64,000 nucleotides of DNA from a virus. Taxonomy: Duplodnaviria > Caudoviricetes. The notes below the pieces were generated by a model. That model did no database searches, was not told where the DNA came from, and saw only the letters and a list, made by a program, of their open reading frames with translations. The position numbers and the translations under genes are program-made. Shown here piece by piece: positions 12,220 to 46,323 of the stretch; positions within the stretch are counted from its first letter, which is position 1; each line of letters begins with the position of its first letter. The stretch lies in IMG/VR virus record IMGVR_UViG_3300009183_000045. One strand, 5' to 3'.

Positions 12220-12289
12220 TTCTAATATATATACTCTATGTCCAGTATTTAAGAAAAAATCTGAGAGATAATAAGAGATAAGTAATAGT

Positions 12290-12577
12290 ATGCATAAAAT
12301 TTGTCTTAATAGTTATTATATAAAATTATTTTTATATGTTGTTACAGCATCTTTGACCGCACTTCTAGCGGATTTACAACATTATATTTGTCATTTTGGG
12401 GGAGATTTAAAAATCACTTGGTCTCAGCTTTTAATGGTTTTTATAAATTTTGCCTTACAAGGGTTAATTGCTTGGAGAGCTTTTATAGATGATTCTTCAG
12501 AAAAAAAAATAAAAAATGTTGACGTTCCATCACTTTTAACAGAAAATACCAATACAACAAATCCAAATATTAAATGA
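12290..12577 (+). CDS. 2-TM membrane protein, holin-like
   Basis: Two hydrophobic segments and charged C-tail; TAAGTA 12279-12284. Confidence 0.55.
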   Translation: MHKICLNSYYIKLFLYVVTASLTALLADLQHYICHFGGDLKITWSQLLMVFINFALQGLIAWRAFIDDSSEKKIKNVDVPSLLTENTNTTNPNIK

Positions 12578-12783
12578 ACTTAGAACAATACATCACTCAA
12601 GAAAACGGCGTCTATATTGTAGATGCGGAAAAACATAATAAAGAAAATGACATTCAATTAGAGAGTGGTGACATTTTTCACTGCATCCTTGATGGATGTA
12701 AATGTGTAGTCAAAGCTTTTGAAAAAGTTAAAGGAGATACTCTTTTTGAATTGCATATTATTAAAAAAACCGCTAAGATTTAA
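12574..12783 (+). CDS. Hypothetical protein
   Basis: 69 aa, ATGA-type overlap with upstream gene. Confidence 0.65.
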   Translation: MNLEQYITQENGVYIVDAEKHNKENDIQLESGDIFHCILDGCKCVVKAFEKVKGDTLFELHIIKKTAKI

Positions 12784-12785
12784 AT

Positions 12786-13118
12786 ATGGAAGAAATGCAA
12801 GAGTTGGCTCGTAAAGTAAAGGCTACAAATATTCAAGTAGTAGTAGATGATCCAGAATGGCAAACTTTAAGAGTGTGGCTCAAAGGTAAATGGGTTGAAC
12901 ACGGTCCAGAGTGTGTTAATAAATTAAGAAAATATTTTGAAGTGGATAAAAGTAATCCTTGGAGAGTGCGCCGAGTTCTTAATTATGTTACTTGTTCTGG
13001 GTTTCGGACCGGAGCAATTAAAGAGACTTCTGTAGACTCTCTTAGGGATGAAGTGCGAAATATTTGGAGTATTATGCTAGGAGATAAAGCCACCCATCGC
13101 GCAGGAGGCAAATTGTAA
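12786..13118 (+). CDS. Hypothetical protein
   Basis: 110 aa, tightly packed. Confidence 0.7.
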   Translation: MEEMQELARKVKATNIQVVVDDPEWQTLRVWLKGKWVEHGPECVNKLRKYFEVDKSNPWRVRRVLNYVTCSGFRTGAIKETSVDSLRDEVRNIWSIMLGDKATHRAGGKL

Positions 13119-13168
13119 ACTAATATCCCTTCAATAGCAGTTGAAGCCTAGTAAAGCTAAGTATTAAC

Positions 13169-14062
13169 ATGTTTAATTATTTAGTTGGACTGGTTGCTTT
13201 GATTGTGGCTTCTTGTGCTGCTTTTTTTTCGGTACAGGGTCTAGCAAATTTATATGCAGGGCAGTTTCTTGCTGTGTGCATAATGGCCTCTAGTTTAGAG
13301 GTGGGAAAACTGGTAGCTGCCAGTTATTTACAGCGTTATTGGAATAAAACCGCAGGCCTTTTAAAAACTTATCTGGTAACTGCGGTGTTGATATTAATGT
13401 GTATCACATCATTGGGTATATTTGGATTTTTAACAGGAGCTTATCAGGCAAATAATTCCAAAGTAGAATTGGTGGATTCTAAGCAAGACAATACTAATTC
13501 AAAGAAAGTATTTTTGGAACAAGAAATAGCTTCTTTAAACCAGCGTTTGGTTGTATTAAACAATGCCAGAGAATCCCAGGAAAAACGTTTGTCTGGATTG
13601 TCCAGTAGAGCCGCAAAGCCGGTGTATGATGATATAGAACGATCTGGGAAGGAGATATCTGAAATACATGATAAAATAAATAATATATCCAAGGAAGTTT
13701 TAAACTCTGGCGAACAAATAATAGAATTAACAGAAGAAAAACATAAATCTTCTGATATTGGAACTTTACAATTTGTTGCAAAGATCTTTGAGGTGCCAGT
13801 TGATTTGGTGGTTAAATGGTTAACCCTTGCTATTGTATTTGTTTTTGATCCCTTGGCTATTTGTTTAATTCTAGCATTTAACAGTGTACAAAAAAAATAT
13901 GTTACAGAAGAAACAATAGTTCTTCCAATTAAACCCACAGACTTACCCATTACTGCGCCAGCAGAAATTATAAAAGAACCTGTAGAAGAGCCTATAGAAG
14001 AAAATATACACGAATTTGTTCAAGGACCGGGTCGTGGGTTTGTTGCTCGATATAAGAAATAA
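13169..14062 (+). CDS. Membrane protein with central coiled coil
   Basis: 3 N-terminal TM segments, coiled coil, C-terminal TM (VFDPLAICLILA); TAAGTA 13158-13163. Confidence 0.75.
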   Translation: MFNYLVGLVALIVASCAAFFSVQGLANLYAGQFLAVCIMASSLEVGKLVAASYLQRYWNKTAGLLKTYLVTAVLILMCITSLGIFGFLTGAYQANNSKVELVDSKQDNTNSKKVFLEQEIASLNQRLVVLNNARESQEKRLSGLSSRAAKPVYDDIERSGKEISEIHDKINNISKEVLNSGEQIIELTEEKHKSSDIGTLQFVAKIFEVPVDLVVKWLTLAIVFVFDPLAICLILAFNSVQKKYVTEETIVLPIKPTDLPITAPAEIIKEPVEEPIEENIHEFVQGPGRGFVARYKK

Positions 14063-14078
14063 TTTAATAAGTAAAATT

Positions 14079-14444
14079 ATGGCCATTAGATTCTTAGATG
14101 ATATAACCGCAGACGGTTCTAGTACTTTTGCTGATAATATATCAGCACACGATTTTTTTGCAGATAGTGGCCTCTTAATGAATTCACTATGTGCAGTGAG
14201 TGCCATCTTAACAGAATTAGTAGCTAATACCGATAGAGTTGCTTGGAATAATGTTGTCACTGTAGTTTCATTGGGAGCAGATAAATGGGATCAGGCTTAT
14301 AACTACATATTATCCACCAGTGCCATAGAAGTTAATCAAGAATTAGTTACAACGTTTGTGTTAAATAACTCTGCAAATATTCTTACCGCTAATGAAATGG
14401 TTTTAAATACACCTTATTTTATCACAGATGGTGGGTTCATTTAG
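14079..14444 (+). CDS. Tail-fibre-associated structural protein
   Basis: Start moved to ATG 14079 (TAAGTA 14068-14073); ends TDGGFI like fibre-associated DGG motifs. Confidence 0.65.
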   Translation: MAIRFLDDITADGSSTFADNISAHDFFADSGLLMNSLCAVSAILTELVANTDRVAWNNVVTVVSLGADKWDQAYNYILSTSAIEVNQELVTTFVLNNSANILTANEMVLNTPYFITDGGFI

Positions 14445-14459
14445 TAAGTATTAAAAAAT

Positions 14460-15974
14460 ATGTCTCCTTATACCTCCAACATTTTAGCCATTAAACGCAG
14501 ATTAGAAGGTGCAGCCGGTGCACCAGTTGGTTTATCTGCAGCCGAACTTGCATATAATCAGGTAGATAACACTCTTTATTATGGCTTTAGTAGTCTAGAT
14601 ACAAATACAGTTACTTCTATTGCTATAGCGGGGTCTGGTGCCTATGTTTCCCTGGCAGGCAATCAAGATGTTTACGGCAACAAAACCTTTAACGGAGATG
14701 TAACTTTTAACAATCCAGTTTCTTTTAGAAATAGTGATTTTAATTTTGGCAACTTTACTTCTTATAATAGTTTATCTTCTGTGGGTATTACTACATTAAG
14801 TGCAACCAATTTTGTCGGGGTTGATGTTATAGTAGATGCTTCCACGGTAACAACATTGGTTTCTACTGCGCCAACCGATGACAAGAGCAACAAAGCGGCC
14901 TCTACAGCTTTTGTGCATGGGATGGTTGATTCTGTTGTTGGGTCTCTTTCAAGTGGCATAGTGGATACATCTACCAATCAAATTATAGAAGGCAACAAAA
15001 CTTTTATAGGATATACCACCCTTTCCTCCGTTAACATGGGATTTTCTAAAATAACAACTTTAGGAGATCCAGAAGGAGATTATGATGCGGTTAATAAAAG
15101 GTATGTAGATGGCATAGCCTCTTCTATAAACATCCATCCAGCAGTTAAAGCTGCTACAACTATACCAGTTGCAGGAGCCGTTTATAATCCAGCAGATTAT
15201 GGTCTTAATGATACTCTAGTGTGGAGTTTTGGTGGATCTCATACAGTAATTCCTTCTTCACACATAATCGGAGCCATAGACGGCGTGGATCTTTATATAG
15301 AAAGTAGAGTATTAATCAAAGATCAACAAGACCCAATACAAAACGGCGTTTGGTTGGTTGACAGTATTGTCGCCAATGGAGTAAACCATGATGTAACATT
15401 TATAAGGGCTTCAGATTATAATCAAAGCATACCAGGTGAAGTGGCTGCTGGGGATTATCTGTTTGTTACAGAAGGGACAGTTAACGCCAATAGAGGGTTT
15501 GTTCAAATTTCTACTGGTACTGGCACCGGTGGAGTTATAATCATCGGAATAGACCCCATTACATTTAGCCAATTTTCCGGCGCTGGGCAAATTACCGCTG
15601 GCACTGGACTTAAAAAGGAAGGTGACACCTTAAGTCTTACAGACGTGGGTGTTGAGGGCTCTTATTTGAGTGTCACCACAGATGGTCAGGGTCGTGTTAC
15701 AAGTGGTAGAAACCCTAATTCCTTAGTGGGTTTATCCGGAGTAGCAATGTCTGAAAGGCAATTGCCTTTGTACACTGGGACAAGTTCTGTATGTGCTGTA
15801 TCATTGACAAATTTTGGTGAGACCTTAATAGGCAGTACTTCTTATTATACAGCAAGTGCTGCTTTAGGATTAGGAGATTTGGCCTTTCAGTCTTCCTCTA
15901 ATGTGTCTTTTACAGGCGGCACCATTCAAGGGGTGACAGTTGTCGACTCTTATATAGATGCTGGCACATTCTAA
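14460..15974 (+). CDS. Tail fibre / fibre-base protein
   Basis: AAELAYN, GNKTF, DAVNKRYVD, VLIKDQQDPIQNGVW, ITFSQFSG, VTTDGQGRVT, IDAGTF motifs common in phage fibre proteins. Confidence 0.75.
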   Translation: MSPYTSNILAIKRRLEGAAGAPVGLSAAELAYNQVDNTLYYGFSSLDTNTVTSIAIAGSGAYVSLAGNQDVYGNKTFNGDVTFNNPVSFRNSDFNFGNFTSYNSLSSVGITTLSATNFVGVDVIVDASTVTTLVSTAPTDDKSNKAASTAFVHGMVDSVVGSLSSGIVDTSTNQIIEGNKTFIGYTTLSSVNMGFSKITTLGDPEGDYDAVNKRYVDGIASSINIHPAVKAATTIPVAGAVYNPADYGLNDTLVWSFGGSHTVIPSSHIIGAIDGVDLYIESRVLIKDQQDPIQNGVWLVDSIVANGVNHDVTFIRASDYNQSIPGEVAAGDYLFVTEGTVNANRGFVQISTGTGTGGVIIIGIDPITFSQFSGAGQITAGTGLKKEGDTLSLTDVGVEGSYLSVTTDGQGRVTSGRNPNSLVGLSGVAMSERQLPLYTGTSSVCAVSLTNFGETLIGSTSYYTASAALGLGDLAFQSSSNVSFTGGTIQGVTVVDSYIDAGTF

Positions 15975-15998
15975 CCTACTTAACGCATAAGTAGTAAT

Positions 15999-18632: not shown

Positions 18633-18660
18633 ACTAGATTTTAGCATAAATATATAAAAT

Positions 18661-18897: not shown

Positions 18898-18932
18898 GCT
18901 TGTGGTATATTGTTTATAGATCTTTTATATTT

Positions 18933-19359: not shown

Positions 19360-19381
19360 TTCTCCTTGGTAAATATATCAT

Positions 19382-20944: not shown

Positions 20945-21032
20945 CCCGCCCCAACTTCACGCGGCATGCTAACTTAAAGGAGGTTAGTGTGCCTAATTTA
21001 GTTAGTATAACCCTTTTTGTGTAAATAGTTAC

Positions 21033-21605
21033 ATGAAGAGGGTTTTTTTATTGTTGTTATTTTCATTAATATCTTGTGCCCCTACACGATATATACCAAA
21101 AGATTCTGAGCCACTGTCACAAGCAGTTTATGCCACCAGTGAGTCTATAGAAAAGGGTCGTATAGATTTAGCAGATCAATATGCTAAAAATGCTAAATTG
21201 TTAGTAGACCCTCCGAAAAATCCTTTCACGGTTAAAGCCATAATATCCAAAGCAAAGGAAAAAGACATAGGAAAGGCAGTTGTGGTTGTTCCATCGTATC
21301 TTACCAACATGGATGTAATAGTAGTGGGATCTGAACAGTATAAAAAACTTCTAGAAATAAAGGAGAATGCGGTTCAATTACAGGTTGAGTTTGAAAATCT
21401 ACAAAAAGAAAAGGAAGAAGTTTATAAGGCCTTAACAGATCAAAGAGAGGCTAAAATGCAATTACTAAAAGATTATGATAAAGTTGTATCGGATCTTAAA
21501 GATAAACAGCTTGCACTGTTAAAGCGAAATATAATTATTACTTCTATGAGTTTTTTCATAGGTCTTTATATATTCTTAAAAGTGAAAGGATTAATACCAT
21601 TTTAA
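21033..21605 (+). CDS. Putative unimolecular spanin
   Basis: Lipobox LIS-C, coiled coil, C-terminal TM helix; upstream of endolysin; TAAATA 21022-21027. Confidence 0.65.
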   Translation: MKRVFLLLLFSLISCAPTRYIPKDSEPLSQAVYATSESIEKGRIDLADQYAKNAKLLVDPPKNPFTVKAIISKAKEKDIGKAVVVVPSYLTNMDVIVVGSEQYKKLLEIKENAVQLQVEFENLQKEKEEVYKALTDQREAKMQLLKDYDKVVSDLKDKQLALLKRNIIITSMSFFIGLYIFLKVKGLIPF

Positions 21606-25843: not shown

Positions 25844-25886
25844 ATATTATATATCTATTTAGGTTATCGGACATATAAATATATGT

Positions 25887-26075: not shown

Positions 26076-26241
26076 ATTGCCATATAAAAACGGAATAGTT
26101 AGTACCAAGACTCATCCAGAATTAAAATTTGGTCAAGCGGTTATGATTGTAGATTCAACTCCAGATTTATATACTGTAAAAATACATGCAAATAGCTTAG
26201 CCACTATTATAGCCAAAGAAGACTTAATGGTTACTCATTAA
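26065..26241 (+). CDS. 58-aa hypothetical protein, not in track
   Basis: Read manually (MKSKLPYKNGIVSTKTHPELKFGQ...); fills the gap. Confidence 0.55.
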   Translation: MKSKLPYKNGIVSTKTHPELKFGQAVMIVDSTPDLYTVKIHANSLATIIAKEDLMVTH

Positions 26242-26250
26242 ATATTACAC

Positions 26251-26629: not shown

Positions 26630-27151
26630 ATGGATAAAAATATAACATGTCTTATTAATCAAACTGATATTCGCAATGTTATTAGAGGGTTAGGGACCAC
26701 TATTTCATATGATTATCGAAATAAAGATTTAAATGTGGTCTGTTTATTGGAAGGCAGTTTGGTTTTTACAGCAAATCTTCTTTTGCAGATAAAAATTCCA
26801 GTCAACCTCTTTTCTATTAAAGTTTCCAGCTATGAAGGAAAGAACAGCACCGGTAAATTAACTTACAACGTAAAGGACTTAGACTTTTGCAAGGATAAAG
26901 ATATTCTTTTAATAGATGATATTCTTGATTCTGGATTAACTCTTTCAACTGTAGTATCTGAAATGAAACAAGCTGGGGCGAGTTCTGTAAGAACCTGTGT
27001 CCTTTTAAACAAACAAGTAGATCGAATGGTAAACATTATACCAGATTATAAAGCATTTGATATAGATAATGAATTCGTAATTGGATATGGCATGGATTGT
27101 AACGGATTACATCGCAATTTACCTTATATAGGGGTGTTAAAGGATAAATAA
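26630..27151 (+). CDS. hpt: Hypoxanthine phosphoribosyltransferase
   Basis: ILLIDDILDSGLTL PRPP loop; LEGSLVFTANL; FVIGYGMD..GLHRNLPYIG. Confidence 0.92.
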   Translation: MDKNITCLINQTDIRNVIRGLGTTISYDYRNKDLNVVCLLEGSLVFTANLLLQIKIPVNLFSIKVSSYEGKNSTGKLTYNVKDLDFCKDKDILLIDDILDSGLTLSTVVSEMKQAGASSVRTCVLLNKQVDRMVNIIPDYKAFDIDNEFVIGYGMDCNGLHRNLPYIGVLKDK

Positions 27152-28119: not shown

Positions 28120-28523
28120 ATTGGGACGAGTATGCCTTGCGCATGGCCGAAGTTGCTTCAATGCGAAGTGAAGACCCTTATAAAAAGGTTGGAGCATGTG
28201 CTCTGGATGAAAATCATAGAGTCATTGGAGTTGCCTATAACGGATTAGCGTCTGGTGTAAATGTAGACCCCTCTTTTTGGTCTGATAGAGATACCAGAAG
28301 AAAATACATGATTCACGCAGAAGCAAATTTACTATCTTTATTTGAACGCAATAAGTGTAAATTACTAGCATGTACCCTCCTTCCGTGTCAAAGTTGTGCT
28401 ACATTAATAGCTGCTCACGGTATTACTCGGGTGGTTTATAAAGAAATGTATTTCAGAGACCCGAATGCATTAGATATTTTTAAATTTTACAACATTGAGT
28501 GTGTAAATATATCATATGAATAA
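28092..28523 (+). CDS. dCMP deaminase
   Basis: HAEAN and PCQSC motifs; RSEDP..KVGAC..AYNG. Confidence 0.92.
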   Translation: MDTVSYQRINWDEYALRMAEVASMRSEDPYKKVGACALDENHRVIGVAYNGLASGVNVDPSFWSDRDTRRKYMIHAEANLLSLFERNKCKLLACTLLPCQSCATLIAAHGITRVVYKEMYFRDPNALDIFKFYNIECVNISYE

Positions 28524-28698
28524 GTTTGATATATGTGTCAGCAGAATATTAGAAGCTGCAAAATTAGATTTTACTAAAGATGATGTCAACAAAGACGGCA
28601 AAGTTGACAAAACAGATGGATATCTCAAAAAGAAAAATGCTGCCATAGCAGCCTCCTTGGCTAAAAAATCTGATAAAAAAGGGTCCTCTAAAAAATAA
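28516..28698 (+). CDS. Small late protein with DxNxDG Ca-binding-like loop
   Basis: DVNKDGKVDKTD; TAAATA upstream. Confidence 0.65.
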   Translation: MNKFDICVSRILEAAKLDFTKDDVNKDGKVDKTDGYLKKKNAAIAASLAKKSDKKGSSKK

Positions 28699-28706
28699 GT
28701 ATTGGG

Positions 28707-30222: not shown

Positions 30223-31272
30223 CTATATGCTACAGGCTCCGCTGGCACATCCTTCATCTGTAGCTGATTGTTTATCGCCGTCATATGTGTTGCTGTAATA
30301 CAGCGTCTTAACTCCCATGCTGTATGCATATAATAATTCTTTTATAAGCATTGAATCCGGAAGAGCCTTGTTAGGATAATGGTCATAATTGTAATAAAGG
30401 TTTGTAGAAATTGACATATCTACCCACTTCTGTAAGGCAGCAACAATATTAATATATCCTATGTTATCCTGCATGTCAAATTGAAGAGTATATTTATTTT
30501 TACAAGTGGAATAATTTGGAACCAGAACCGGAACAGAATTGGCTTTAGACCCTTTGTATGTCAACAAAGAGCGGGGCGGTTCAATGCCGTTTGTAGTGTT
30601 TTGAATGACTGAACTAGATTCACACGGCATAAGAGCTGTCAGTGTAGAATGTCTCATGCCAGTCGATACCACCCTTTGACGCAAAGCCTCCCAATCTAGA
30701 GAAGGTTTTCTTGTAATTATGCTATCAATTTTCTTCTTGTAAGTGTCTATAGGAAGAATGCCTTTGGAATATTTTGTGCTTTCAAATTTTTCACACACAC
30801 CTTTTTCTGCTGCCAGATTAACGGAAGAAGAAATAAGATTATATTGTATTTTTTCCATCAAAGCGTCTACAAAATTAGGAGCTTCCTTGTCAGTGTACTT
30901 AAGATTGTTTTTGGCTAACAAAGCCGCTAGGTTGGTGATACCAACTCCAAGACTTCTACGTTTCTTTGTAAAGTTCTCTGCTGCTTTGGTGAAGTAATCT
31001 TGATAATCAATTAATTCATCCAACATGCGAACAATGATATCGCAAGTATCAGCCAAATCTTGATCATCCTTAATTTCTAGCACGTTGATGGCTGAGAGAA
31101 CACATATACCAATCTCTCCTTCAGGGTCATCAATATGCTGTAGAGGTTTTGTGGGATGTGTCACTTCTACGCAGTTATGCACTAGTATTTTATTAGCAAA
31201 GAAGTTTTGTGTGTGCTGAACAGTAATATCATACACAGGTACATTTTTTTTAATTTTTTTAATTTTTAACAT
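30223..31272 (-). CDS. nrdA: RNR alpha C-terminal half, preceded by 33-aa C-intein
   Basis: MLKIKK...VYDITV...NFFANKILVHN then CVEVTHPT (catalytic Cys), ICVLSAIN, GIEP, C-terminal CASGACSI. Confidence 0.93.
   Translation of the reverse strand: MLKIKKIKKNVPVYDITVQHTQNFFANKILVHNCVEVTHPTKPLQHIDDPEGEIGICVLSAINVLEIKDDQDLADTCDIIVRMLDELIDYQDYFTKAAENFTKKRRSLGVGITNLAALLAKNNLKYTDKEAPNFVDALMEKIQYNLISSSVNLAAEKGVCEKFESTKYSKGILPIDTYKKKIDSIITRKPSLDWEALRQRVVSTGMRHSTLTALMPCESSSVIQNTTNGIEPPRSLLTYKGSKANSVPVLVPNYSTCKNKYTLQFDMQDNIGYINIVAALQKWVDMSISTNLYYNYDHYPNKALPDSMLIKELLYAYSMGVKTLYYSNTYDGDKQSATDEGCASGACSI
31174..31272 (-). mobile_element. Split intein, C-terminal part (33 aa, blocks F/G)
   Basis: VYDITV (F) and ILVHN|C (G, +1 Cys). 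Confidence 0.93.
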
Positions 31273-31276
31273 AATC

Positions 31277-32119
31277 TTATTTATTTTTAATGCGTCTTGA
31301 ATAGTAAGGGTCGTATTTCAGCCCAGTCGCTTCTTTTACGGCTTTTATAAAACCTAGCTGCCCGGCACGGTTAAACCGGCACGCGCAAGCCACCATCCAT
31401 ACAAAGTTTCTCTCTTTAGATAAAATATACATCTCTTGCCAATTAATAATTCGGTTAAATTCTTTAGATAATTCTATACCCTTTTCAATAAAATAGCTAT
31501 CATTTAAACCGCAAGAGTTTGAATTTTTAATACCTTTAGAACGCTCTTTTAGCTTTATTCTTTCTTTTAAGCTAGCTTTTCTGCCTTTTGAGTGATGTAC
31601 CCACTCGCCGCTTTTTATTTTGGGGTGAGTGGTTTCTACAGAACCGATAATAATGCCGGTAGTAGCATCTTTTACCACCACTGTACCTTTTCTCGCTTCT
31701 GATATTCGTTGACGACCTTCTGGGGTTTGCCATCCGGTAGTTTCTCTCACTGTTGCAGACTGATGTTTTAACCAGGCGTACCCCATACGGAGAGATTTAG
31801 TGAGGCTGTACACTGGCTTACATGTTTTATTTTTATTATATCCATTTAAACAGAATCTTACTGCAAGTATGTCGTTTCTAATATTAAATATTTTCCATCG
31901 AAGCATATGAATAAAAATATGCTCTTCTGGTAGTAGTGTAACAAGATTATTAATCATATCTGTTCCTTCAAGAGATCTTGGAATTATGTGATGTACTTCA
32001 ACATATATGTGATTATTTTTAAGTCTTAAGTCTTTTAGATTTCTTTGCTCAAGCCTAAATCTTGGAGTTGTTTGTCTGCAATAATTAATTAATTTGTCGT
32101 GTATATTTTTGTAATTCAT
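31277..32119 (-). CDS. Free-standing HNH homing endonuclease between nrdA halves
   Basis: EVHHIIPRS...NNLVTLLPEEHIFIH; NUMOD-like basic repeats (RISEARKG). Confidence 0.85.
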   Translation of the reverse strand: MNYKNIHDKLINYCRQTTPRFRLEQRNLKDLRLKNNHIYVEVHHIIPRSLEGTDMINNLVTLLPEEHIFIHMLRWKIFNIRNDILAVRFCLNGYNKNKTCKPVYSLTKSLRMGYAWLKHQSATVRETTGWQTPEGRQRISEARKGTVVVKDATTGIIIGSVETTHPKIKSGEWVHHSKGRKASLKERIKLKERSKGIKNSNSCGLNDSYFIEKGIELSKEFNRIINWQEMYILSKERNFVWMVACACRFNRAGQLGFIKAVKEATGLKYDPYYSRRIKNK

Positions 32120-32160
32120 AATCTCGTTACATAATTACTTATGCTCTGAGGTCATGGATA

Positions 32161-33789
32161 TTAAGCGTCTAATACAAGAATATCTGTTACAAGCAGATCT
32201 TTTGCTTCCACATACCCTCGATTGTGAGTGTAAATCTTATGTTCTGGAGTGCATTGAATTGTATAACCGGTAGTTTCATCTTCAATTTCAATTAACTCTT
32301 CAGATACACCGGTCTGTGCAAACGCACTAATTAATGAGACTGCATTAGTATCTGCTGCAATATCATATGATCTAATATGTACTGTACCTTCTTGCATATA
32401 TTTTTCAAGATCTTTAATTTGAATTGTCAGGTCACCGTATATCGCGGTGCTGATATCAATTAAGGTTTCTCCAACTAAACACAGATTAGTCATAGATACT
32501 CTCTCCAAAAAGGATCCGTGTTCATTGCAATGATCAATATTCATCACATATAGGCGACCAGTTTCAGTACGTTCCTTTACAAATTGAGACATCAAAGAAC
32601 TGGCCTTCACTTTTCTCTTATAACGAATATTTTTATCTGATTCATATTTTTCATACAATTCATCAAAATGAGGAAGACCAAACGCTTCTGTCAAATCTGG
32701 TACTTCATGTGAGGAAAACAAAGTGATTGATTCATTTTTCATGAAGCGTTCATAAAAGATCTTGGAAAATTGTATCACATAATCAACTTTACGAACTCGA
32801 TTGTCTTCTGTTCCTCCGTTGTTTTTAAGAGATAAAACATCTTCTATTTCATAGTGCCAGAACGGAAAATTTACAGTAGCGCCGCCGCCACGAATTCCGT
32901 TTTGTTGACAACTTTTGACGGTGGCTTCAAATACCTTGAGAAAAGGAATTACTCCAGTGTGAATAACGCTGCCATTTTTAATTTCAGTGCCGATACCGCG
33001 AATCCTTCCAAAATTTAATCCGATTCCGTATCGCTGAGTAGTAGCAAAGCCAGCAGCAGTATTGGAACTAAAAATAGACTCCTTAGTATCATCCACATCA
33101 ATGAGGCAACACGACGCATACTGTTTAAGCAAACCGCGGATACCCGCCATTTGGGGTGTGGGTAAATTGATTTTAAATTTACTAAATCGGTCGTAGGCTC
33201 TTTTAACATATTGTAATCGGTTTTCTGGTGGATATTTCATGTAGCTCACCATGGCTGCCATCATATAGGCAAACTGGGGTGTTTCGTAAATTTCTTTGCT
33301 CTTACGATTTTGAATCAAATATTTATCACACAATTGTTTGAGGCCTGAATATGTAAAGTCATAATCTCTGTTATGAACTATCTTTTCATCTAATTTATCT
33401 ATTTCCGCCTTGGTATAGTGTTGAAGAATCTCCGGGTGATATATTTTTCTTTCAACATTGGCTTCTATAAAATCATAAAATTTCGGGGGATTTTTTCCTC
33501 CCCACACATCTTTACGCAATTGATAACTTAATAACCGAGAAGCTACCCATTGATAATTGGGATTTTCTTCATTAAAAAGATTAATAGCAGATTCTACTAA
33601 CACTTTATGGATTTCTTTAGTAGAGATACCATCTACAAGGTTTAATTTGGTATTAATTTCAATGTCTGAAATACTAACACCGGTTATTTCTTGAGTTGCC
33701 CATATAATAACTTTGTTGATGTTGTCTACATTAAAAGGAACCAAGGTACCATCTCTTTTTCTGACTTTGAGGATATTATTTTCACTCAT
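32161..33789 (-). CDS. nrdA: RNR alpha N-terminal half (ATP cone) ending in 106-aa N-intein
   Basis: VRKRDG ATP cone, LPTPQMAG, ASCCLI, QNGIRGG, SMTNL then CLVGET...CTPEHKIYT...EAKDL, stop. Confidence 0.95.
   Translation of the reverse strand: MSENNILKVRKRDGTLVPFNVDNINKVIIWATQEITGVSISDIEINTKLNLVDGISTKEIHKVLVESAINLFNEENPNYQWVASRLLSYQLRKDVWGGKNPPKFYDFIEANVERKIYHPEILQHYTKAEIDKLDEKIVHNRDYDFTYSGLKQLCDKYLIQNRKSKEIYETPQFAYMMAAMVSYMKYPPENRLQYVKRAYDRFSKFKINLPTPQMAGIRGLLKQYASCCLIDVDDTKESIFSSNTAAGFATTQRYGIGLNFGRIRGIGTEIKNGSVIHTGVIPFLKVFEATVKSCQQNGIRGGGATVNFPFWHYEIEDVLSLKNNGGTEDNRVRKVDYVIQFSKIFYERFMKNESITLFSSHEVPDLTEAFGLPHFDELYEKYESDKNIRYKRKVKASSLMSQFVKERTETGRLYVMNIDHCNEHGSFLERVSMTNLCLVGETLIDISTAIYGDLTIQIKDLEKYMQEGTVHIRSYDIAADTNAVSLISAFAQTGVSEELIEIEDETTGYTIQCTPEHKIYTHNRGYVEAKDLLVTDILVLDA
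32164..32481 (-). mobile_element. Split intein, N-terminal part (106 aa, blocks A/B)
   Basis: C1 CLVGETLI; block B TPEH; ends at stop without F/G blocks. Confidence 0.93.
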
Positions 33790-33831
33790 AAAATTATTGT
33801 TTGTTGTTTATTTAGACGGATCAAAGTCCAT

Positions 33832-34200
33832 TCACTTCTTCTTTCTTTTTTTAGATTTTGGTGCAGTTTCTGGGATAAGTTTTTGTACTTCTCTTTTATA
33901 TATTTTGTCGGCTAAATGTTTTAAAAATTCAGCAACTTCAAAAGAGGAACAAACGTTGATGATCCTAGATTCTGCATATTTAATGTCTGATTCCGGCCAA
34001 TCAGGATACAAGTAGTGGAGTAATTCATGAAAGGCTGTAGGAATTATATCTCTTCTATAATCTAATTCTATGTCAGTCCAGTAACAAAGACCTACAGAAT
34101 TGTTCATTTTTCTCAAATTAAAAAATTCTGGAGGTTTAGTTTTGACTAAATCTAAGGTTTTCTCGTAGAGATCTTTAACCTCTTTGTTTGTCAATTTCAT
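33832..34200 (-). CDS. Small HExxH-motif protein
   Basis: FHELLHYLYP. Confidence 0.6.
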   Translation of the reverse strand: MKLTNKEVKDLYEKTLDLVKTKPPEFFNLRKMNNSVGLCYWTDIELDYRRDIIPTAFHELLHYLYPDWPESDIKYAESRIINVCSSFEVAEFLKHLADKIYKREVQKLIPETAPKSKKRKKK

Positions 34201-35829: not shown

Positions 35830-35852
35830 AAAGGTAAATATTGTTACAACAT

Positions 35853-36748: not shown

Positions 36749-36778
36749 AAAAACTCCGCTTAAGCGGAGTTTTTTTTT
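36749..36778 (+). terminator. Rho-independent terminator
   Basis: AAAACTCCGC-TTAA-GCGGAGTTTTTTTTT. Confidence 0.9.
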
Positions 36779-36789
36779 CTAAATATATC

Positions 36790-37200
36790 ATGGAAGATAA
36801 TTTTTATTCTTTTTATAAAAAAAATCAGGGACTGCCTTCTGCTTTTACTAAGAGTCACGGTGTTACAAAAAATACCAGAAAACATCATCAGAGTGTCGAT
36901 AGACTTGCCAAAATAGGTCATCGCAAAAGTGGTAAGGTTAATTTGGTTGCGGCAAGTGAAAACCAATCCTTAAAAAATCCAGTAGTAAATGCTTTTGCAA
37001 ATTCTAATCGAACTTTTATAAAAGGATTAACTTGGGCAATAGTAAAACCTATACTAGATGCATACAAGATTCAACATGATGTAGAATCTGAAGAGACTTA
37101 TGATAAATCTCTTAATAGAGTTCAATGTAAATTAACCGGTGCTAAAATAATTATTCGTTATATTCCTCAAAACAAAACTTGGGTGCTTTTTAAGAAATAA
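36790..37200 (+). CDS. Late hypothetical protein
   Basis: 136 aa; TAAATA 36780-36785. Confidence 0.7.
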   Translation: MEDNFYSFYKKNQGLPSAFTKSHGVTKNTRKHHQSVDRLAKIGHRKSGKVNLVAASENQSLKNPVVNAFANSNRTFIKGLTWAIVKPILDAYKIQHDVESEETYDKSLNRVQCKLTGAKIIIRYIPQNKTWVLFKK

Positions 37201-38605: not shown

Positions 38606-38616
38606 TAAGAAACATT

Positions 38617-39102
38617 TTACTTAGATTTTCCGGGAACTACCACCATATTTTTATTTATATCTCTTTCTTGAGCTGGATTTATACCCTCCAGACTAGAGGC
38701 TAAATCCATATAAAATGTTAATTTTGCATCCAAGTCCTTGATGGCACCTAGAATTTTGGCTGAATATGCAATTAAGGAATTTAATTTCTTTTTTTGTTTT
38801 GCATCCAACGTGGTGTTAAGTTGTAAACAATTTTCCATTTTATTGGAAGCTGTTAACAAATATATAAAACTATCAGCGAGATCATTGGTCACGGTCTGTA
38901 GTGGCCACGGCATATCTGCAGTTTGTTCTACAGGAGGACCAACTGCCGGAAAGAGTGGATTATTTTTTTGATATGGAAAATTATATCCTTGTTGATTACT
39001 TTGAGGGCCCCAGTCTTTTCTGGGTGCATCACTATAACCCCCGTAATTAGGATTATTGTACATGCCATCTAAAGCCTCATTCAAAGCATTATGCAAGTCC
39101 AT
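38617..39102 (-). CDS. Hypothetical protein
   Basis: Start reassigned to ATG 39102 (MDLHNALNEA), one nt after the upstream stop. Confidence 0.65.
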   Translation of the reverse strand: MDLHNALNEALDGMYNNPNYGGYSDAPRKDWGPQSNQQGYNFPYQKNNPLFPAVGPPVEQTADMPWPLQTVTNDLADSFIYLLTASNKMENCLQLNTTLDAKQKKKLNSLIAYSAKILGAIKDLDAKLTFYMDLASSLEGINPAQERDINKNMVVVPGKSK

Positions 39103-39103
39103 A

Positions 39104-39292: not shown

Positions 39293-39317
39293 ATCTTAAT
39301 ATTTAGCACTAAAAAGG

Positions 39318-40136: not shown

Positions 40137-40158
40137 GTTACAACTACTTACCACCGTG

Positions 40159-40557: not shown

Positions 40558-40611
40558 AACGTTATTTAGTCTAAAATCCTCTTCAATCACGATAGGGTCC
40601 CTGAATTAGGA

Positions 40612-40617
40612 TAAATA
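40612..40617 (+). promoter_or_regulatory. Late promoter core TAAATA (representative of many TAA[A/G]TA copies)
   Basis: 12 nt before sheath ATG; same motif at 43112, 43676, 46312, 15988, 14445, 14068, 19370, 21022, 25876, 27145, 36780. Confidence 0.75.
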
Positions 40618-40629
40618 TTTTATAATTTT

Positions 40630-43107
40630 ATGTCAACAAGAACTATAACTTCACCAGGTGTACAGATTACAGAGATAGATCAGTCTCAAATTGCGCGCAA
40701 TTCAGCCGGAACAAATGTGTTTATGACCGGTTTTGCTTCTCAAGGCCCTACCGATGAGGTGGTTTACATTGGCAGCGTTTCTGAATTTGAATCCACTTTC
40801 GGCACACCTACAAATGAAGCGGAAAGATATTTGTACCATTCTGCCAGACAAGTTTTGGTTCAGTCTCCTGCCAATTTAAAGGTGACAAGAATGGCATATG
40901 GGTCAGGATCGGGAATAGGTTTTGGTAATTCTTACAGTGCTTTAGTGTTTCCTGTGAAGGGATATATTCAATCTGTTGCAAATCAATTGAGTTCAAATGT
41001 TATTAATTTTACTAATGACTCTTGGGGTGGAAGGAATGGATCTACCCCTGAACTAGCATTAAATGCATTTACACTAGACAGTATTGTATATGGTACTAGT
41101 GCTTATCATTATCAAACATTCTTTACAGATACTACAGGAAATTATAGACTTTCTATAACTGGAGCTACTAGTGCTTATACATTAACAATTAACAACAGTG
41201 CAGTTTTAAGCACTTATATTAATAATCTTCCTTCCAATTATAAGGATGCAAATTATTATGAAATTCAGCCGCCACAATCTGTGTTGTTAACTGAATCTGA
41301 ATATCAGGATGTTATATCTAATAACATTTCTTGGGATGCAAGTTATTCAGAACAAGATATAAACAGCAGTTCTAAATTAGGCCACAGTGGTATAATTGTA
41401 TTAAACCCCACAAAGGTTGCAGTGGATAATATACATCAAGGTTATTATATAGGATTTGCTGATAACAGGGATAATAATCCAGGATCAGATTTCAAGAGTG
41501 TAACCGGGGTTAAAGCTGTTGACCAAGTTTACAATAATCAATATCAAACTTTTACAAACATACCCACCAATCGTTTAAATTTTGCTTTGAGTGGTTCACA
41601 TTTAAATGTTTCTAATAGCATATCCCGCACGATGGAACAATATCCAACTGGATACGACTTTTCGTCTTCAACTTATAATGATTGCTTAACTTTGATGACA
41701 TTTAAGTTAAGAACTTCTATATATGCTCAAGACACAGTTACTTTGGATTACAGAGTCCAAGAAGGTTATACAGGTTCTTTATATAACAACAAAACCCAAA
41801 ATAATCCTAACGGAGGGGCCCCCGTTACTTTTGCATTAGAAAAAGTAGCTGCACAGAATTCAAGATCCTCTGATATGAAGGTTATAGTAAACCCGATTAT
41901 TTCTAGTACAGGAGATTGGATTTCTTCCGATGGTAAAACTCCTAAAAAATCAGTGAGGGTAAGTGATGCTGCCAGAAACATTTATTCTTTGGGTGTTTAT
42001 GTGTCTCAAACTGATACTACCAGTTGTGATATTGGAAATGTTCCTCTAAAACTTCAGAGAATTTTAAACAGACTGGATGACATGGATGAAGAAATAGATC
42101 TTATTCCTGAAGCTGGTTTAGGTACAATATGGGCAGGAGCTGCTGCTAAAAAGGCGTCTGTCTCTCCTGGCAATACTTCAGACGGTGGTTACTTTTTTGA
42201 TGAAAAGTATCCCATTTCTTCTGCTCTTATGGCAGAATTAAAAAATCAAACAGGCGGCAATGAAAGTATATTAAAGCAGAATTATGATTCAATAGTCCAG
42301 CAATTTTATACTTTTGCGGAAAAGACTCGTATGGATCATATGTTCATACCAGATCCTTTGCGTTATATTTTTGTCAATGGTCCTGATTTTAAAACCACCA
42401 AAATATCCACTTACAATTTTTCATTAGACATTTATTGGCCGTTGAAAAATCTTTTCGGAGATATTTCTTCTAGTTACGGAGCAACTTACGGCAACTGGAT
42501 CAAATTTAATGATGTTTATTCCAATCAAATGGTTTGGCTTCCAAACTCTGGTTACGTGGCTGCAGATATAGCATTTTCTTCTGCGGTTAATTTTCCGTGG
42601 TCAGCCCCTGCTGGTTTTAATAGAGGTGTATTAACCAATATTGTTGATATTGCAATTAATCCTACTCAAAAGCAAAGAGATCTATTATATAGAATTAATA
42701 TAAACCCAATTGCATATTTCCCAGGTGAAGGTTATGTTATCTACGGGCAAAAAACCTTAATGAATAAGCCATCTGCCTTTGATAGAATTAATGTTCGCAG
42801 ACTTTTCTTGACTCTTGAAAAGGTCACTAAAAATTTATTAAAATACTATGTGTTCGAACCCAACACCTTCGCCACCAGATCTAGATTAATAAATGCTTTA
42901 TCACCAACTTTTAATCAAGCAAAGGCGAATGATGGTTTATACGATTATAGAATTATTTGCGACGAAAGAAATAACACTCCAGATGTTATAGATAATAATG
43001 AATTGAAGATTTCCATTTATATACAAGCAGTGCGCACAGCTGAGTACATTTTAGCAGACTTTGTAGGCACTCGTACCGGGATAAACTTCAATGAACTAAC
43101 GTCCTAG
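40630..43107 (+). CDS. Tail sheath protein (gp18-like)
   Basis: SPGVQITEID, GPTDE, FGTP, WSAPAGFNRG, RININPI, GQKTL, DRINVRRLF, CDERNNT. Confidence 0.96.
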   Translation: MSTRTITSPGVQITEIDQSQIARNSAGTNVFMTGFASQGPTDEVVYIGSVSEFESTFGTPTNEAERYLYHSARQVLVQSPANLKVTRMAYGSGSGIGFGNSYSALVFPVKGYIQSVANQLSSNVINFTNDSWGGRNGSTPELALNAFTLDSIVYGTSAYHYQTFFTDTTGNYRLSITGATSAYTLTINNSAVLSTYINNLPSNYKDANYYEIQPPQSVLLTESEYQDVISNNISWDASYSEQDINSSSKLGHSGIIVLNPTKVAVDNIHQGYYIGFADNRDNNPGSDFKSVTGVKAVDQVYNNQYQTFTNIPTNRLNFALSGSHLNVSNSISRTMEQYPTGYDFSSSTYNDCLTLMTFKLRTSIYAQDTVTLDYRVQEGYTGSLYNNKTQNNPNGGAPVTFALEKVAAQNSRSSDMKVIVNPIISSTGDWISSDGKTPKKSVRVSDAARNIYSLGVYVSQTDTTSCDIGNVPLKLQRILNRLDDMDEEIDLIPEAGLGTIWAGAAAKKASVSPGNTSDGGYFFDEKYPISSALMAELKNQTGGNESILKQNYDSIVQQFYTFAEKTRMDHMFIPDPLRYIFVNGPDFKTTKISTYNFSLDIYWPLKNLFGDISSSYGATYGNWIKFNDVYSNQMVWLPNSGYVAADIAFSSAVNFPWSAPAGFNRGVLTNIVDIAINPTQKQRDLLYRININPIAYFPGEGYVIYGQKTLMNKPSAFDRINVRRLFLTLEKVTKNLLKYYVFEPNTFATRSRLINALSPTFNQAKANDGLYDYRIICDERNNTPDVIDNNELKISIYIQAVRTAEYILADFVGTRTGINFNELTS

Positions 43108-43124
43108 TTGATAAGTATTGATAT

Positions 43125-43661
43125 ATGGCTGATATATTCTCAAATCAAAGTATACAAAATTTTTATCAAACTGCTTATAAAAAGGATTTTGCTAGGAAAA
43201 ATTTATTTAGAGTGATTTCTATAGAGACCGGCATTAATGGCCTTTCTTTTGATAACACTGATTTGGTTTATGTCACATCCACATCTTTACCTCAGAGGGC
43301 TATTACTAATATTAAATTGCCTTATATGGGAATGAGTTTTAATCTTCCAAGCACCGCCAGTTATCCTGGAAGTGATGCTTGGAAGATTAAATTCAGGATG
43401 CCACAAGATCTTTCCATAAGAGCTAAGTTAGAAGCGTGGACTAGAGTTATATTTAATGATGCCACGACTACAGGTTCCTATGAGTTAAAAAACTTGGGCA
43501 CTGTAATGCTTTCTTTGATGAGCAAAGGAGGACAACCTATTCGTAATTACAAATTAGTAGGTGCCTATTGTGTGTCCTTAGGAGACTATGCCTTAGATGT
43601 TGCTGATACTGGCTCTGTGGTGGAACAAGAAGCTACTCTTGCCTATCAATATTGGGAGTAA
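43125..43661 (+). CDS. Tail tube protein (gp19-like)
   Basis: FARKNLFRV, TSLPQ, YMG, LAYQYW; follows sheath. Confidence 0.85.
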   Translation: MADIFSNQSIQNFYQTAYKKDFARKNLFRVISIETGINGLSFDNTDLVYVTSTSLPQRAITNIKLPYMGMSFNLPSTASYPGSDAWKIKFRMPQDLSIRAKLEAWTRVIFNDATTTGSYELKNLGTVMLSLMSKGGQPIRNYKLVGAYCVSLGDYALDVADTGSVVEQEATLAYQYWE

Positions 43662-43687
43662 TTGAAATGCTTTAATAAGTATTTTCA

Positions 43688-44506
43688 ATGTCATTTCTAT
43701 CTAAAGCCTTTCAGCCTGTTAATCCTCTTAATAGTGGATTTGTTTCTAGGGCCGGTGGATCAGCAAATCCATTGACTCAGATGTTTAGTTTAAACAGTGA
43801 TGTATTAAACAAAGCACCTAGTCCATATTCCTTTTATTTAGACATATTGAGCCAGTGGCCTACTGCACCGGCTTTGGCTTCAATGTGGCTGGTTGTAATA
43901 AACCTGAGAAGTGTTTCTGCTCTGATGAATAATCCGGCGGCACTGGTTAGTCTCTTTGATTCAGGAGATTTTCAACCTTGGGAAATTTCTCAGGGCACGG
44001 TTGACGATTTAACAAAACCAGAATATCAACAAACTATAGAAAATCTTATGGGGTGTGTTTTTGCTCAGGAGGTTTCAATTCCAGGAGAAACTATAACAGC
44101 TACTCAAGAAAATTTAAATTGGGGAGGGTTACAAACTCCTTATATTATTAAAGGCAGAAACTCTTTTGACAAAATTAAAATGTCTTTTTTAGAAACTAAT
44201 GCCTCTTTTGCAGATTTAGTTATTCGACCTTGGATAGTATTGGCCAGCCATCTTGGATTAATTGCTCGGTCGCCTGGTTCACCAAAAAATGTAAAGTGTG
44301 ATTTCATGGATGTAATACAATTTGCAAAAACTGGTCCGTATTCCTCTGTTGCCATACGCAAGATTGTAAGATATTATGATGTGGTTCCTGTAACTCTGGA
44401 CTCATTAACTTTATCTCATTTAGAAGAGGGTTTAAAAAGAAGGAACGTTTCTTTTATATATAACGGTTATTCAGTCATGGAAGCCGGTACTGCAAATATG
44501 ATGTAG
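43688..44506 (+). CDS. Tube-like baseplate protein (gp54/gp48-like)
   Basis: VSIPGE, SFLETN, RPW, VTLDS..RRNVSFIY tube-fold pattern. Confidence 0.65.
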   Translation: MSFLSKAFQPVNPLNSGFVSRAGGSANPLTQMFSLNSDVLNKAPSPYSFYLDILSQWPTAPALASMWLVVINLRSVSALMNNPAALVSLFDSGDFQPWEISQGTVDDLTKPEYQQTIENLMGCVFAQEVSIPGETITATQENLNWGGLQTPYIIKGRNSFDKIKMSFLETNASFADLVIRPWIVLASHLGLIARSPGSPKNVKCDFMDVIQFAKTGPYSSVAIRKIVRYYDVVPVTLDSLTLSHLEEGLKRRNVSFIYNGYSVMEAGTANMM

Positions 44507-44522
44507 ACCTGTAATTATATAA

Positions 44523-45449
44523 ATGGAATTATATTTGTATAGTGTAGAAATGCCTTTCTCTGGCGTTAAGCTTTTTTACAGAGAAATGTCTTCTAAAGAA
44601 CAAATATATGTCTCAAAGGCACATACCATGTTACCTTTAGACCCAGAATATACTGAAGACTATGGTCGAGCGTTACAGAAAGTTGTATTACAATGTGTAG
44701 AAAATAAAGAAGATTTTTACAAACTTAATATAATAGAATATATTTTATTTTTATGCAAGTTGCGTATTGTGTCTATAGGTGAAGAAATTGAATTACAATT
44801 TCAAAACCCAGTAGAAGAAGAAACTGATCAAAAAAAGATAAAGTTGACTTTAAACCTGTCAACTTTAATGAGAAATTTATACAACACAACAAAAGATATA
44901 TTAACAACTGAAGAATTGCAAATAGATCAGTTAAACATCAAGTTTGAATGGCCTTTAATAAATTCTGAACATTTTTTTTTAAAACCTAACAAAGACCTAT
45001 TAATAGATTCAGTGGCTTTATATATAAAAAGTTTTACTTTAAATGATAAAACTTTCCATATGAAAGATTTTAATACTTCTCAAAAATTAGAAATGTTTGA
45101 GAAATTTCCTATAAAATATCAAAGCAAAATACAAGATATTGTTTTTAATTATATTAAATTATTTTCAGAATCTAATATATTCACGGATCATTTAGCAGAT
45201 TATTTAAATTTTAATTTTTATAACTCATCATATCAAAGTATTTTGAGAATGTTTTTTACAGAAAATTTAAGGAATTTGTATCAACAATACTACATATTGG
45301 CCTCGAGGAAAATATCACCCTCTTATACAGACTCCATGACAATTGCAGAAAGGTCTATATATTATTCTTTTATAGAAAGTGAATCAGAACAACAAAATTC
45401 AGAAGAAGGAGAATGGTCTGAAGAAATGAATATTGATCCAACTGCCTAG
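44523..45449 (+). CDS. Baseplate hub assembly protein (gp26-like)
   Basis: LFYREM..KEQ, EYILFLCKLRIVSIGEEIEL. Confidence 0.7.
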   Translation: MELYLYSVEMPFSGVKLFYREMSSKEQIYVSKAHTMLPLDPEYTEDYGRALQKVVLQCVENKEDFYKLNIIEYILFLCKLRIVSIGEEIELQFQNPVEEETDQKKIKLTLNLSTLMRNLYNTTKDILTTEELQIDQLNIKFEWPLINSEHFFLKPNKDLLIDSVALYIKSFTLNDKTFHMKDFNTSQKLEMFEKFPIKYQSKIQDIVFNYIKLFSESNIFTDHLADYLNFNFYNSSYQSILRMFFTENLRNLYQQYYILASRKISPSYTDSMTIAERSIYYSFIESESEQQNSEEGEWSEEMNIDPTA

Positions 45450-45486
45450 AGAATAAAGTGATATAATCTCTAATTATTATTAATAT

Positions 45487-46296
45487 ATGTCTGAAAATTT
45501 AAATTTCAACGATGCTTTAAATACTTTAGAGGTTTTCAAAGAATTGTGTGTAGCTAAAGCGTGGTCACCTACTTTAGGTAAAAACATTCTTATTAAAGAA
45601 CTATCTGCTAAGCAGCAAAAGCAATTATTATCTTCGGCGGTAGAGTCCGCTTCTGAATATAAATCATATTTTATTAAAAATTTATATGAAATTTTATTAC
45701 AGAATTGCAATGAACCCAAAGAAACTATAAATTCTTTAAATTTTATTGATTATACATCTATTGTTATTTCTCTTCGCAAACAAACTTCTAAAGAAGTTTT
45801 AATATCCTTCAGTAAGGAAGATGATAAAAGGGTAGAAGAGGTAATAGATTTAGATGGGGTACTGGACAAACTTTCGGCTCTTGTAATTCCAATCCCAGAA
45901 AACATCGCGGTAAAAAAGGATAATATTGAAATCAACATATCGTTAAAGATACCCACTATTACAGATGATGTTACATTCTTTGAATTTTTACCAGCAGTTA
46001 AAAAACAAGATACCCAAGCAGAAACCTTGAAGCAATTAATTGCGGAAACTTATATGTATGAATCTGCAAAGTGCATAGACAAGGTTGAAGTGGCGGGCAA
46101 AGACTTGGGATATAACACCCTTTCCGTTAAACAAAAATATGCTTTAGTTGAAAAATTACCAGCTTCTTTAATTCAAAAATTGTTATCTCAGTATGCCTCT
46201 TGGAAAGAATCTGTTAATAAAGCATTAACCGTAAAGAGTTCTAATGGAATTGAAAAACAATTAGATATTGATTCTATCTTATTTTTAACTTCTTAA
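45487..46296 (+). CDS. Second gp26-like baseplate hub protein
   Basis: IKELSAKQQK, IVISLR, LKIPT pattern paralogous to previous gene. Confidence 0.6.
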   Translation: MSENLNFNDALNTLEVFKELCVAKAWSPTLGKNILIKELSAKQQKQLLSSAVESASEYKSYFIKNLYEILLQNCNEPKETINSLNFIDYTSIVISLRKQTSKEVLISFSKEDDKRVEEVIDLDGVLDKLSALVIPIPENIAVKKDNIEINISLKIPTITDDVTFFEFLPAVKKQDTQAETLKQLIAETYMYESAKCIDKVEVAGKDLGYNTLSVKQKYALVEKLPASLIQKLLSQYASWKESVNKALTVKSSNGIEKQLDIDSILFLTS

Positions 46297-46323
46297 TCCT
46301 GCTATAGAATCTAAGTATTCTAT

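Follow-up and report, generated by a model that had tools for sequence, protein, structure and literature searches.

The stretch of DNA analysed here, referred to as the window, is 64,000 nucleotides (nt) of the IMG/VR virus record IMGVR_UViG_3300009183_000045, part of an uncultured freshwater T4-like myovirus that is distant from T4. The window encodes late-type genes for a tail sheath (40630), a tail tube (43125) and a large terminase (50400), tail-fibre-like, hub-like and tape-measure-like genes, ribonucleotide reductase, three tRNAs and one transfer-messenger RNA (tmRNA). The G+C content is 33-37%, apart from the early-cassette region at 1-4000 (47-51%). No nucleotide match to the window and no close isolate were found among phage records, the best matches of the sheath were T-even phages (36% identity), and no exact copy of the tail tube protein was on record in public assemblies. 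The subject of the analysis is the hexamer TAARTA (R being A or G; hereafter the box), a candidate late promoter element that lies a few nt before the ATG of many genes.

Two relatives from IMG/VR were compared with the window, G002 (a 128.7 kb fragment, terminase 79% identical to that of the window) and G001 (211.6 kb, complete with terminal repeats, terminase 61% identical). Outside this lineage the nearest sheath and gp55 matches showed 36-49% identity. T4 (a 49-kb segment in the purging test described below), cyanophage P-SSM4 and the marine methylophage Melnitz were used as comparators.

A simple gene call that was blind to the motif gave 82 ATG-started genes. The box ended 4-9 nt 5' of the ATG at 28 of these 82 gene starts, compared with 13 of 2038 other ATGs used as the control, an enrichment of about 50-fold. 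The gap between box and ATG had its mode at 5-6 nt, with 13 genes at gap 5 and nine at gap 6 (22 of the 28 box genes in the window). TAARTA-N5-ATG was observed 16 times against 3.1 expected and TAARTA-N6-ATG nine times against 2.75 expected, and none of 100 shuffles reached either count, so the motif is enriched above shuffled AT-rich sequence. An earlier note on this DNA had listed 15 such sites between 12279 and 46323; the hexamer and the gap to the ATG of a long open reading frame (ORF) were correct at all 15, and further box sites were present both inside and outside that range and on both strands. As a word, TAAGTA was under-represented in the window (27 against 50 expected), and about 18 of the 27 copies, roughly two thirds, lay directly upstream of a gene start. 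TAATTA was an occasional variant at box positions, and TAACTA was found at none of the box positions before window gene starts.

Chance, through AT-rich intergenic sequence, upstream stop codons or ORF calling, is a vanishingly improbable source of this pattern. The low G+C content of the genome and the TAA contained in the motif would favour it. However, the TAA was the stop codon of the upstream gene in only 3 of 28 cases, and the gap-5 class, the commonest, has no in-frame stop, so that it cannot be produced by ORF calling. The enrichment, the shuffles and the missing TAACTA also speak against chance, as does the retention of the box before orthologous genes in relatives whose terminases are 61-79% identical.

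Shine-Dalgarno (SD) cores, defined as GGAG, GAGG or AGGA at -18 to -4, were found before 7 of 86 window genes versus 10% of other ATGs, which is background, in agreement with the earlier description of these starts as having no evident SD. SD cores were also at background in G001 (20 of 273 genes) and G002 (5 of 138 genes). Both relatives repeated the pattern of the window, including the 5-6 nt peak for TAAATA and TAAGTA alike, and this peak was confined to these three genomes, being absent from T4, P-SSM4 and Melnitz. As a separate observation, GGAGG (58 against 113.5 expected) and AGGAG (105 against 165 expected) were depleted in G001 gene bodies on the sense strand only, suggesting that this phage, itself without SD usage, avoids SD-like words within its genes; the window is without this depletion, and its glycine-rich fibre genes are full of GGAGG.

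Early genes carried a two-block promoter, TTGnnn-17-TAATAT, with the -10 ending 6 nt before the ATG, and independently started structural genes carried TAADTA (D being A, G or T), the box being present before fibre, sheath, tube, hub, tape-measure-like and terminase genes. Genes with neither box nor early promoter started within 4 nt of the upstream stop. In its general form, TAnnnW ending 4-8 nt before the ATG was seen at 86% of the non-coupled window genes versus 23% of other ATGs, and at coupled genes of G001 the box was rare (4 of 98), 89 of the 98 being counted as box-less. The box-less late genes at 53278-58952 (+), whose ATG follows the preceding stop codon by 1 nt (starts 53278, 53879, 55796 and 57213), are probably translated by coupling. 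Eight divergent gene pairs were separated by only 30-72 nt, and seven of these eight regions had a box directly before at least one ATG. No TAARTA was found upstream of the tmRNA and the tRNAs, which is uninformative on the late box. The tRNA-Arg gene has a sigma70-type promoter, TTGATT-16-TATAAT (9940-9986, +), that ends about 8 nt before its 5' end, so promoters abut RNA genes as well.

In T4, whose late transcription is a textbook case, late promoters normally yield mRNAs with a leader that contains the ribosome-binding site. The T4 late box TATAAATA spans -13 to -6, shows no conservation at -35, is followed by an AT-rich segment and occurs in either polarity (PMC2988020). TAAATA corresponds to the 3' six bases of this box, and a 5-nt gap therefore puts the transcription start (+1) on the A of the ATG. 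In the window and in G001, positions -40 to -2, counted from the box, carried no information and no -35 signal, and A/T dominated the three positions 3' of the box. T was avoided directly 5' of the box, where G001 has A in 33 of 48 sites (aTAARTA), and boxes were used on both strands. The base 5' of the ATG was a pyrimidine in 25 of 28 box genes versus 8 of 15 coupled genes in the window; transcription starts usually show such a preference at -1/+1. TAARTA is probably the -10 box of gp55-type late promoters, with +1 on or next to the A of the ATG and late mRNAs that are leaderless.

Spacing alone is indecisive, because 5-9 nt would suit the distance from a -10 box to +1 as well as that from an SD to AUG. 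A purely mRNA-level, non-SD ribosome-binding motif without promoter function would have this same SD-like spacing, would account for a motif before about a third of the genes in an SD-less genome, and is compatible with the A/G choice in the box, since either base could pair with U. This explanation is nevertheless very improbable in view of the purging of the box from gene bodies, which was determined by comparing observed word counts with synonymous-codon shuffles of gene bodies with trimmed gene ends. TAAGTA was depleted in gene bodies of the window (sense 5 against 13.3 expected, antisense 4 against 19.5), of G001 (sense 13 against 43.6, antisense 10 against 52.2) and of G002 (sense 12 against 28.2, antisense 14 against 40.1), and control hexamers were just mildly low. 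Purging was as strong on the antisense strand as on the sense strand, indicating a signal at the DNA level, because a signal at the mRNA level gives the antisense strand no reason for purging. The accepted gp55 box ATAAATA behaved in the same way on the antisense strand of P-SSM4 (0 against 27.2 expected), Melnitz (1 against 16.6) and T4 (1 against 14.3). No depletion of TAAGTA was found in T4, P-SSM4 or Melnitz, and TAAGTA therefore behaves as a late-promoter word only in the lineage of the window. An mRNA-level motif is also at odds with the identity between the motif and the T4 late box core, with early genes that lack the box and have TTGnnn-17-TAATAT at the same distance from the ATG, and with first genes after terminators or in the 30-72-nt divergent regions, where there is no other promoter candidate.

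The box also behaved as a conserved footprint. Between the window and G002, box and gap were kept at no fewer than 12 orthologous starts with diverged flanks, the G/A choice within the box was kept at 12 of 12 orthologous starts, and turnover, with a box gained or lost, was seen at 34200, 38166, 38605 and 50039. In the more distant G001, TAAGTA and TAAATA were swapped at the tail tube gene and the next gene.

Two conserved arrangements of hairpin or terminator bear on where transcripts begin. A 16-bp hairpin followed by a U7 run (21009-21044, +) encloses both a TAAATA box (21022-21027, +) and its ATG (21033). Its folding energy is -18.2 kcal/mol (z -5.4), and the G002 counterpart reaches -18.3 kcal/mol (z -5.8) with compensatory changes, one of them in the coding arm. 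In a transcript from upstream the ATG would be buried and termination would occur about 15 nt into the gene; a transcript begun at the ATG is without the 5' arm of the hairpin. For T4 I-TevI, soc and e, a late promoter within an inhibitory hairpin frees late transcripts only (PMC2988022), and the window hairpin likewise holds its late box inside it. At the second site, an intrinsic terminator with an 11-bp stem and a U9 run (36749-36774, +), kept in G002, has its U-run ending 1 nt before the box of a TAAATA-4-ATG start (box 36780-36785, +; ATG 36790). This box is the sole promoter-like element between terminator and ATG, so the leader of the gene at 36790 can be a few nt at most. Both conserved layouts make sense only with a transcription start within a few nt of the ATG. 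No orthologues of the hairpin genes were found in G001, the distant relative.

These sites also bear on the possibility that the box is a late promoter but that the proteins are made mainly from longer read-through mRNAs, the AT-rich box region serving as an SD-independent landing site or having a dual role. Such an arrangement would suit a likely host that is SD-poor (see below) and in which many genes are AT-rich before the ATG. It would also suit boxes lying within tight co-directional arrays and even inside upstream ORFs, and the SD-less leaders of 7-14 nt that sheath and nrdA keep. Read-through from upstream, however, would bury the ATG at 21033 and terminate, transcripts of the gene behind the box at 36780 have no other possible origin, given the terminator immediately ahead of that box, and the 5-6 nt peak is sharper than expected of a standby site. 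We consider this possibility unlikely overall.

Homologues of gp55, the sigma factor that may read the box, were found in G001 and G002 (phrog_234, E 1e-27 and 4e-30), each directly adjoining the gp47 homologue as in T4. In the sigma-region-2 part, they were 39-49% identical to annotated late sigmas of cyanophages and Melnitz. The residues of T4 gp55 that form the pockets for A-12, A-9 and A-8 have been described (PMC7892883). Y97, T99 and L54 of these pockets were invariant in the homologues, and the changes H95F, N13P (A-9 pocket) and R57A were observed. The homologues (L009:1519-2256 and L008:1507-2166, both on the minus strand) have an N-terminal extension of about 100 amino acids (aa), basic and then acidic, and are without the T4-like C-terminal clamp-binding tail. 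A variant late sigma accepting TAAGTA, as proposed in the earlier note, gains indirect support from the two-strand purging of TAAGTA and from its exchange with TAAATA at orthologous starts.

The host was approached through the phage tmRNA (18933-19359, +), which encodes a 32-residue tag ending in YALAA. Its exact 27-nt 3' end is present in many phyla; the whole tmRNA was closest, among the matches listed, to metagenome-assembled genomes (MAGs) of Chthoniobacterales (Verrucomicrobiota), with 81% identity over the first 99 nt. On this sequence similarity the host lineage is tentatively assigned to Chthoniobacterales, an assignment weakened by the G+C content of these MAGs (55-63% versus 33-37% in the phage). 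Their S10-spc-alpha operons showed a clear SD at about a quarter of the genes, and in a general gene sample with constrained starts both SD and TAnnnT at 5-8 nt stood at 6%; the one 16S found in the candidate host MAGs is partial and lacks its 3' end. SD initiation is thus open to the likely host yet little used by it, and leaderless genes are not obviously in excess there. The alternative that the host simply lacks SD usage, also raised in the earlier note, is partly right, SD being few in the tentative host. Where the host lineage is itself SD-poor, an SD-less phage is less of a surprise than promoters set on the ATG, and this layout looks like the phage's own. A Bacteroidota-type host was considered as the cause of the missing SD and rejected, the early promoters being TTGnnn-17-TAATAT, which is not known as a Bacteroidota promoter type. 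In the 20 nt upstream of long ORFs in the MAG samples, CCCC, TTCC, TCCC and CTTC were the most frequent 4-mers; they recall the invariant TTCCC box of the phage early promoters and may belong to a promoter or leader of the host.

The earlier note had gone further and suggested that the phage could disable canonical host initiation, the tmRNA helping to recycle ribosomes. Nothing was found in favour of either proposal, and no homologue of initiation factors IF3 or IF1 was found in the relatives. A 71-aa homologue of ribosomal protein bS21 (Pfam E 3e-8) was observed in G001 at about 70270-70490, after TTGACT-16-TAAATT-6-ATG; no copy was found in the window or the G002 fragment. A private translation regime, in which leaderless or coupled SD-free messages together with the tmRNA and, in G001, bS21 would shift ribosomes to leaderless initiation and against host mRNAs, is distinctly unlikely; such a shift has been proposed for Thermus phage phiYS40.

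The mechanism that would best explain the pattern as a whole is late transcription from a promoter placed on the start codon. A gp55-type phage sigma on host RNA polymerase would read TAARTA (more rarely TAATTA, often with A before it) and need no -35 element. In this lineage the box would have shifted to 5-6 nt from the ATG, the distance of T4 TATAAATA from +1, so that late transcripts would start at the A of the AUG or within about 1-2 nt of it and be translated leaderless, without SD. Nearly every independently started gene would be served by a box of its own or, in the same position, by a sigma70-type -10, and box-less genes within 4 nt of an upstream stop would be translated by coupling. 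Hairpins holding box and ATG would terminate or silence read-through transcripts, and transcripts begun inside them would stay open.

Several observations weigh against late promoters that start transcription on the ATG. The position of +1 is one that we infer from T4 geometry only, and a spacing of 5-9 nt with A/G degeneracy would also suit a ribosome-binding element pairing through U. The search for the late sigma gave homologues in both relatives but no gp55 within the 64-kb window; the window phage's own gp55 must lie outside the 64 kb. A Pfam model for gp45 and a gp33 query gave no match in G001 or G002, and since they also missed cyanophage P-SSM4, these searches are insensitive. The pyrimidine preference at -1 was weaker in G001 (67% versus 56%). 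The box also stands before PhoH, the C-terminal nrdA piece and small ORFs of the early region, and is thus not exclusively late. In about 700 kb of Chthoniobacterales MAG sequence, where start calls are uncertain, the excess of TAnnnT at 5-8 nt was weak or absent. Longer gaps are conserved at the sheath (12-13 nt), at a DUF6267 fusion gene (12-13 nt) and at nrdA (19 nt), which implies short SD-less leaders of 7-14 nt in these three cases. Strictly leaderless messages are thus not proposed for every late gene.

Compared with T4, the window shares the TAAATA core, the absence of a -35 element, the AT-rich segment after the box, use in either polarity, the position before virion genes and the purging from gene bodies. 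The differences lie in the distance, since TAAATA in the T4 late region is 14-46 nt (mostly 23-28) before the ATG and here 5-6 nt; in the SD, a strict core being present in 31 of 52 T4 late-region genes and none above background here; and in the box itself, whose two upstream bases TA are not conserved here and in which G is accepted at -8 (TAAGTA). P-SSM4 and Melnitz resemble the window in the purging of their late box (ATAAATA in both) but differ in that the box peaks 19-31 nt before the ATG and that SD cores precede 28% and 53% of their genes, respectively; TAAGTA is not associated with starts in either. The T4-type late promoter core is known, and TAAGTA would be a new form of it.

The literature searched gave no account of a T4-type phage with leaderless late genes. 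The nearest precedent for the leaderless late layout of the window is phiYS40, a large myovirus. In a review that cites Sevostyanova et al. (2007), its middle and late mRNAs are described as mostly leaderless and its late expression as dependent on leaderless translation (PMC3594737). Changes in the levels of IF2 and IF3 are reported for phiYS40. This phage differs from that of the window in lying outside the T4-like phages and in lacking a gp55-type late box, and the phylum of its host is itself rich in leaderless genes (PMC12340547). In Deinococcus-Thermus and Actinobacteria, a -10 hexamer placed a few bp ahead of the start codon suffices for expression from a leaderless mRNA (PMC12340547; PMC4633059). 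Those cellular boxes next to ORFs are read by the housekeeping sigma, whereas for the window we infer a phage late sigma, and the layout here, unlike that of cellular leaderless genes, covers most of a phage genome.

If the interpretation of TAARTA as a late promoter on the start codon is correct, a whole lineage of T4 relatives has joined late box and start codon and given up SD entirely, and a natural large virulent phage is expressed almost wholly by leaderless and coupled translation. It would also provide a natural specificity variant of gp55, with G accepted at -8, for structure-function work. For annotation, start codons become callable from the box, and SD-based gene finders will mis-call such phages. 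Two-strand depletion is, in addition, a route to recognising promoter words.

The box sites of the window are as follows. In the left part, TAAATA at 7273-7278 (-) is 5 nt before ATG 7267 and TAAGTA at 7303-7308 (+) is 6 nt before ATG 7315, the two boxes lying 24 nt apart in a 47-nt divergent intergenic region; TAAATA at 7616-7621 (+) is 6 nt before ATG 7628 and TAAGTA at 11588-11593 (-) is 5 nt before ATG 11582. Further boxes at 709, 2735, 3676 and 4207 lie beyond the range and list of the earlier note. At 2698-2749, the ATG of one early cassette meets a stop after three codons, followed by TAAATA-6-ATG.

A run of TAAGTA boxes on the plus strand follows, at 12279-12284 (5 nt before ATG 12290, 95 aa), 13158-13163 (5 nt before ATG 13169, 297 aa; the G001 orthologue has TAAATA at 9 nt), 14068-14073 (5 nt before ATG 14079), 14445-14450 (9 nt before ATG 14460, 504 aa, fibre/decoration-like) and 15988-15993 (5 nt before ATG 15999, 877 aa, tail-fibre-like). 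TAAATA is present at 18647-18652 (+), 8 nt before ATG 18661, with a tandem TAAATA at 5 nt in the G002 orthologue, and at 19370-19375 (+), 6 nt before ATG 19382, starting 10 nt 3' of the tmRNA CCA.

Around the second divergent region, which is 43 nt long, TAAATA at 25856-25861 (-) is 12 nt before ATG 25843 (886 aa, DUF6267 and cytidylyltransferase; gap 12-13 nt in G002) and TAAATA at 25876-25881 (+) is 5 nt before ATG 25887. TAAATA boxes on the plus strand were also found at 26239-26244 (6 nt before ATG 26251), 27145-27150 (5 nt before ATG 27156) and 28504-28509 (6 nt before ATG 28516), and TAAGTA at 28696-28701 (+), 5 nt before ATG 28707, is kept in G002 with diverged flanks. TAAATA at 35835-35840 (+) is 12 nt before ATG 35853, and the G002 sequence is identical. 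On the minus strand, TAAGTA at 38618-38623 is 12 nt before ATG 38605 and missing in G002 (turnover), TAAGTA at 40145-40150 is 8 nt before ATG 40136 (PhoH-like; box and gap kept in G002), and TAAATA at 40563-40568 is 5 nt before ATG 40557 and kept in G002.

Among the virion genes, TAAATA at 40612-40617 (+) is 12 nt before ATG 40630 of the tail sheath, with a 12-13 nt gap kept in three relatives. TAAGTA at 43112-43117 (+) is 7 nt before ATG 43125 of the tail tube (TAAGTA in G002; TAAATA at 6 nt in G001), and TAAGTA at 43676-43681 (+) is 6 nt before ATG 43688. The variant TAATTA at 44512-44517 (+) is 5 nt before ATG 44523 (baseplate-hub-like), where G002 has TAAATA at 8 nt. TAAGTA at 46312-46317 (+) is 6 nt before ATG 46324 (tape-measure-like), with the same box and gap in G002 and G001. 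TAAATA at 50388-50393 (+), 6 nt before ATG 50400 of the large terminase, lies within the 3' end of the upstream ORF; TAAATA at 55481-55486 (+) is 5 nt before ATG 55492 and kept in G002, and another TAATTA variant precedes ATG 58979.

The nrdA gene (30223-33789, -) is split by the insertion of a gene for a 280-aa homing endonuclease (31277-32119) into a 542-aa N-terminal piece and a 349-aa C-terminal piece, and resembles the 'genes in pieces' case of nrdA/mobE in Aeh1. The N-terminal piece has TAAATA at 33809-33814 (-), 19 nt before ATG 33789, a gap that is kept in G002. In G002 nrdA is unsplit, and the new C-terminal piece of the window opens with TAAATA-5-ATG (31278-31283, -; ATG 31272). The large terminase (50400-53276, +) has 958 aa compared with about 620 aa in relatives, and the extra segment of about 340 aa, which has a LAGLIDADG-like match, is likely, judging from its sequence, to be an intein-like insertion.

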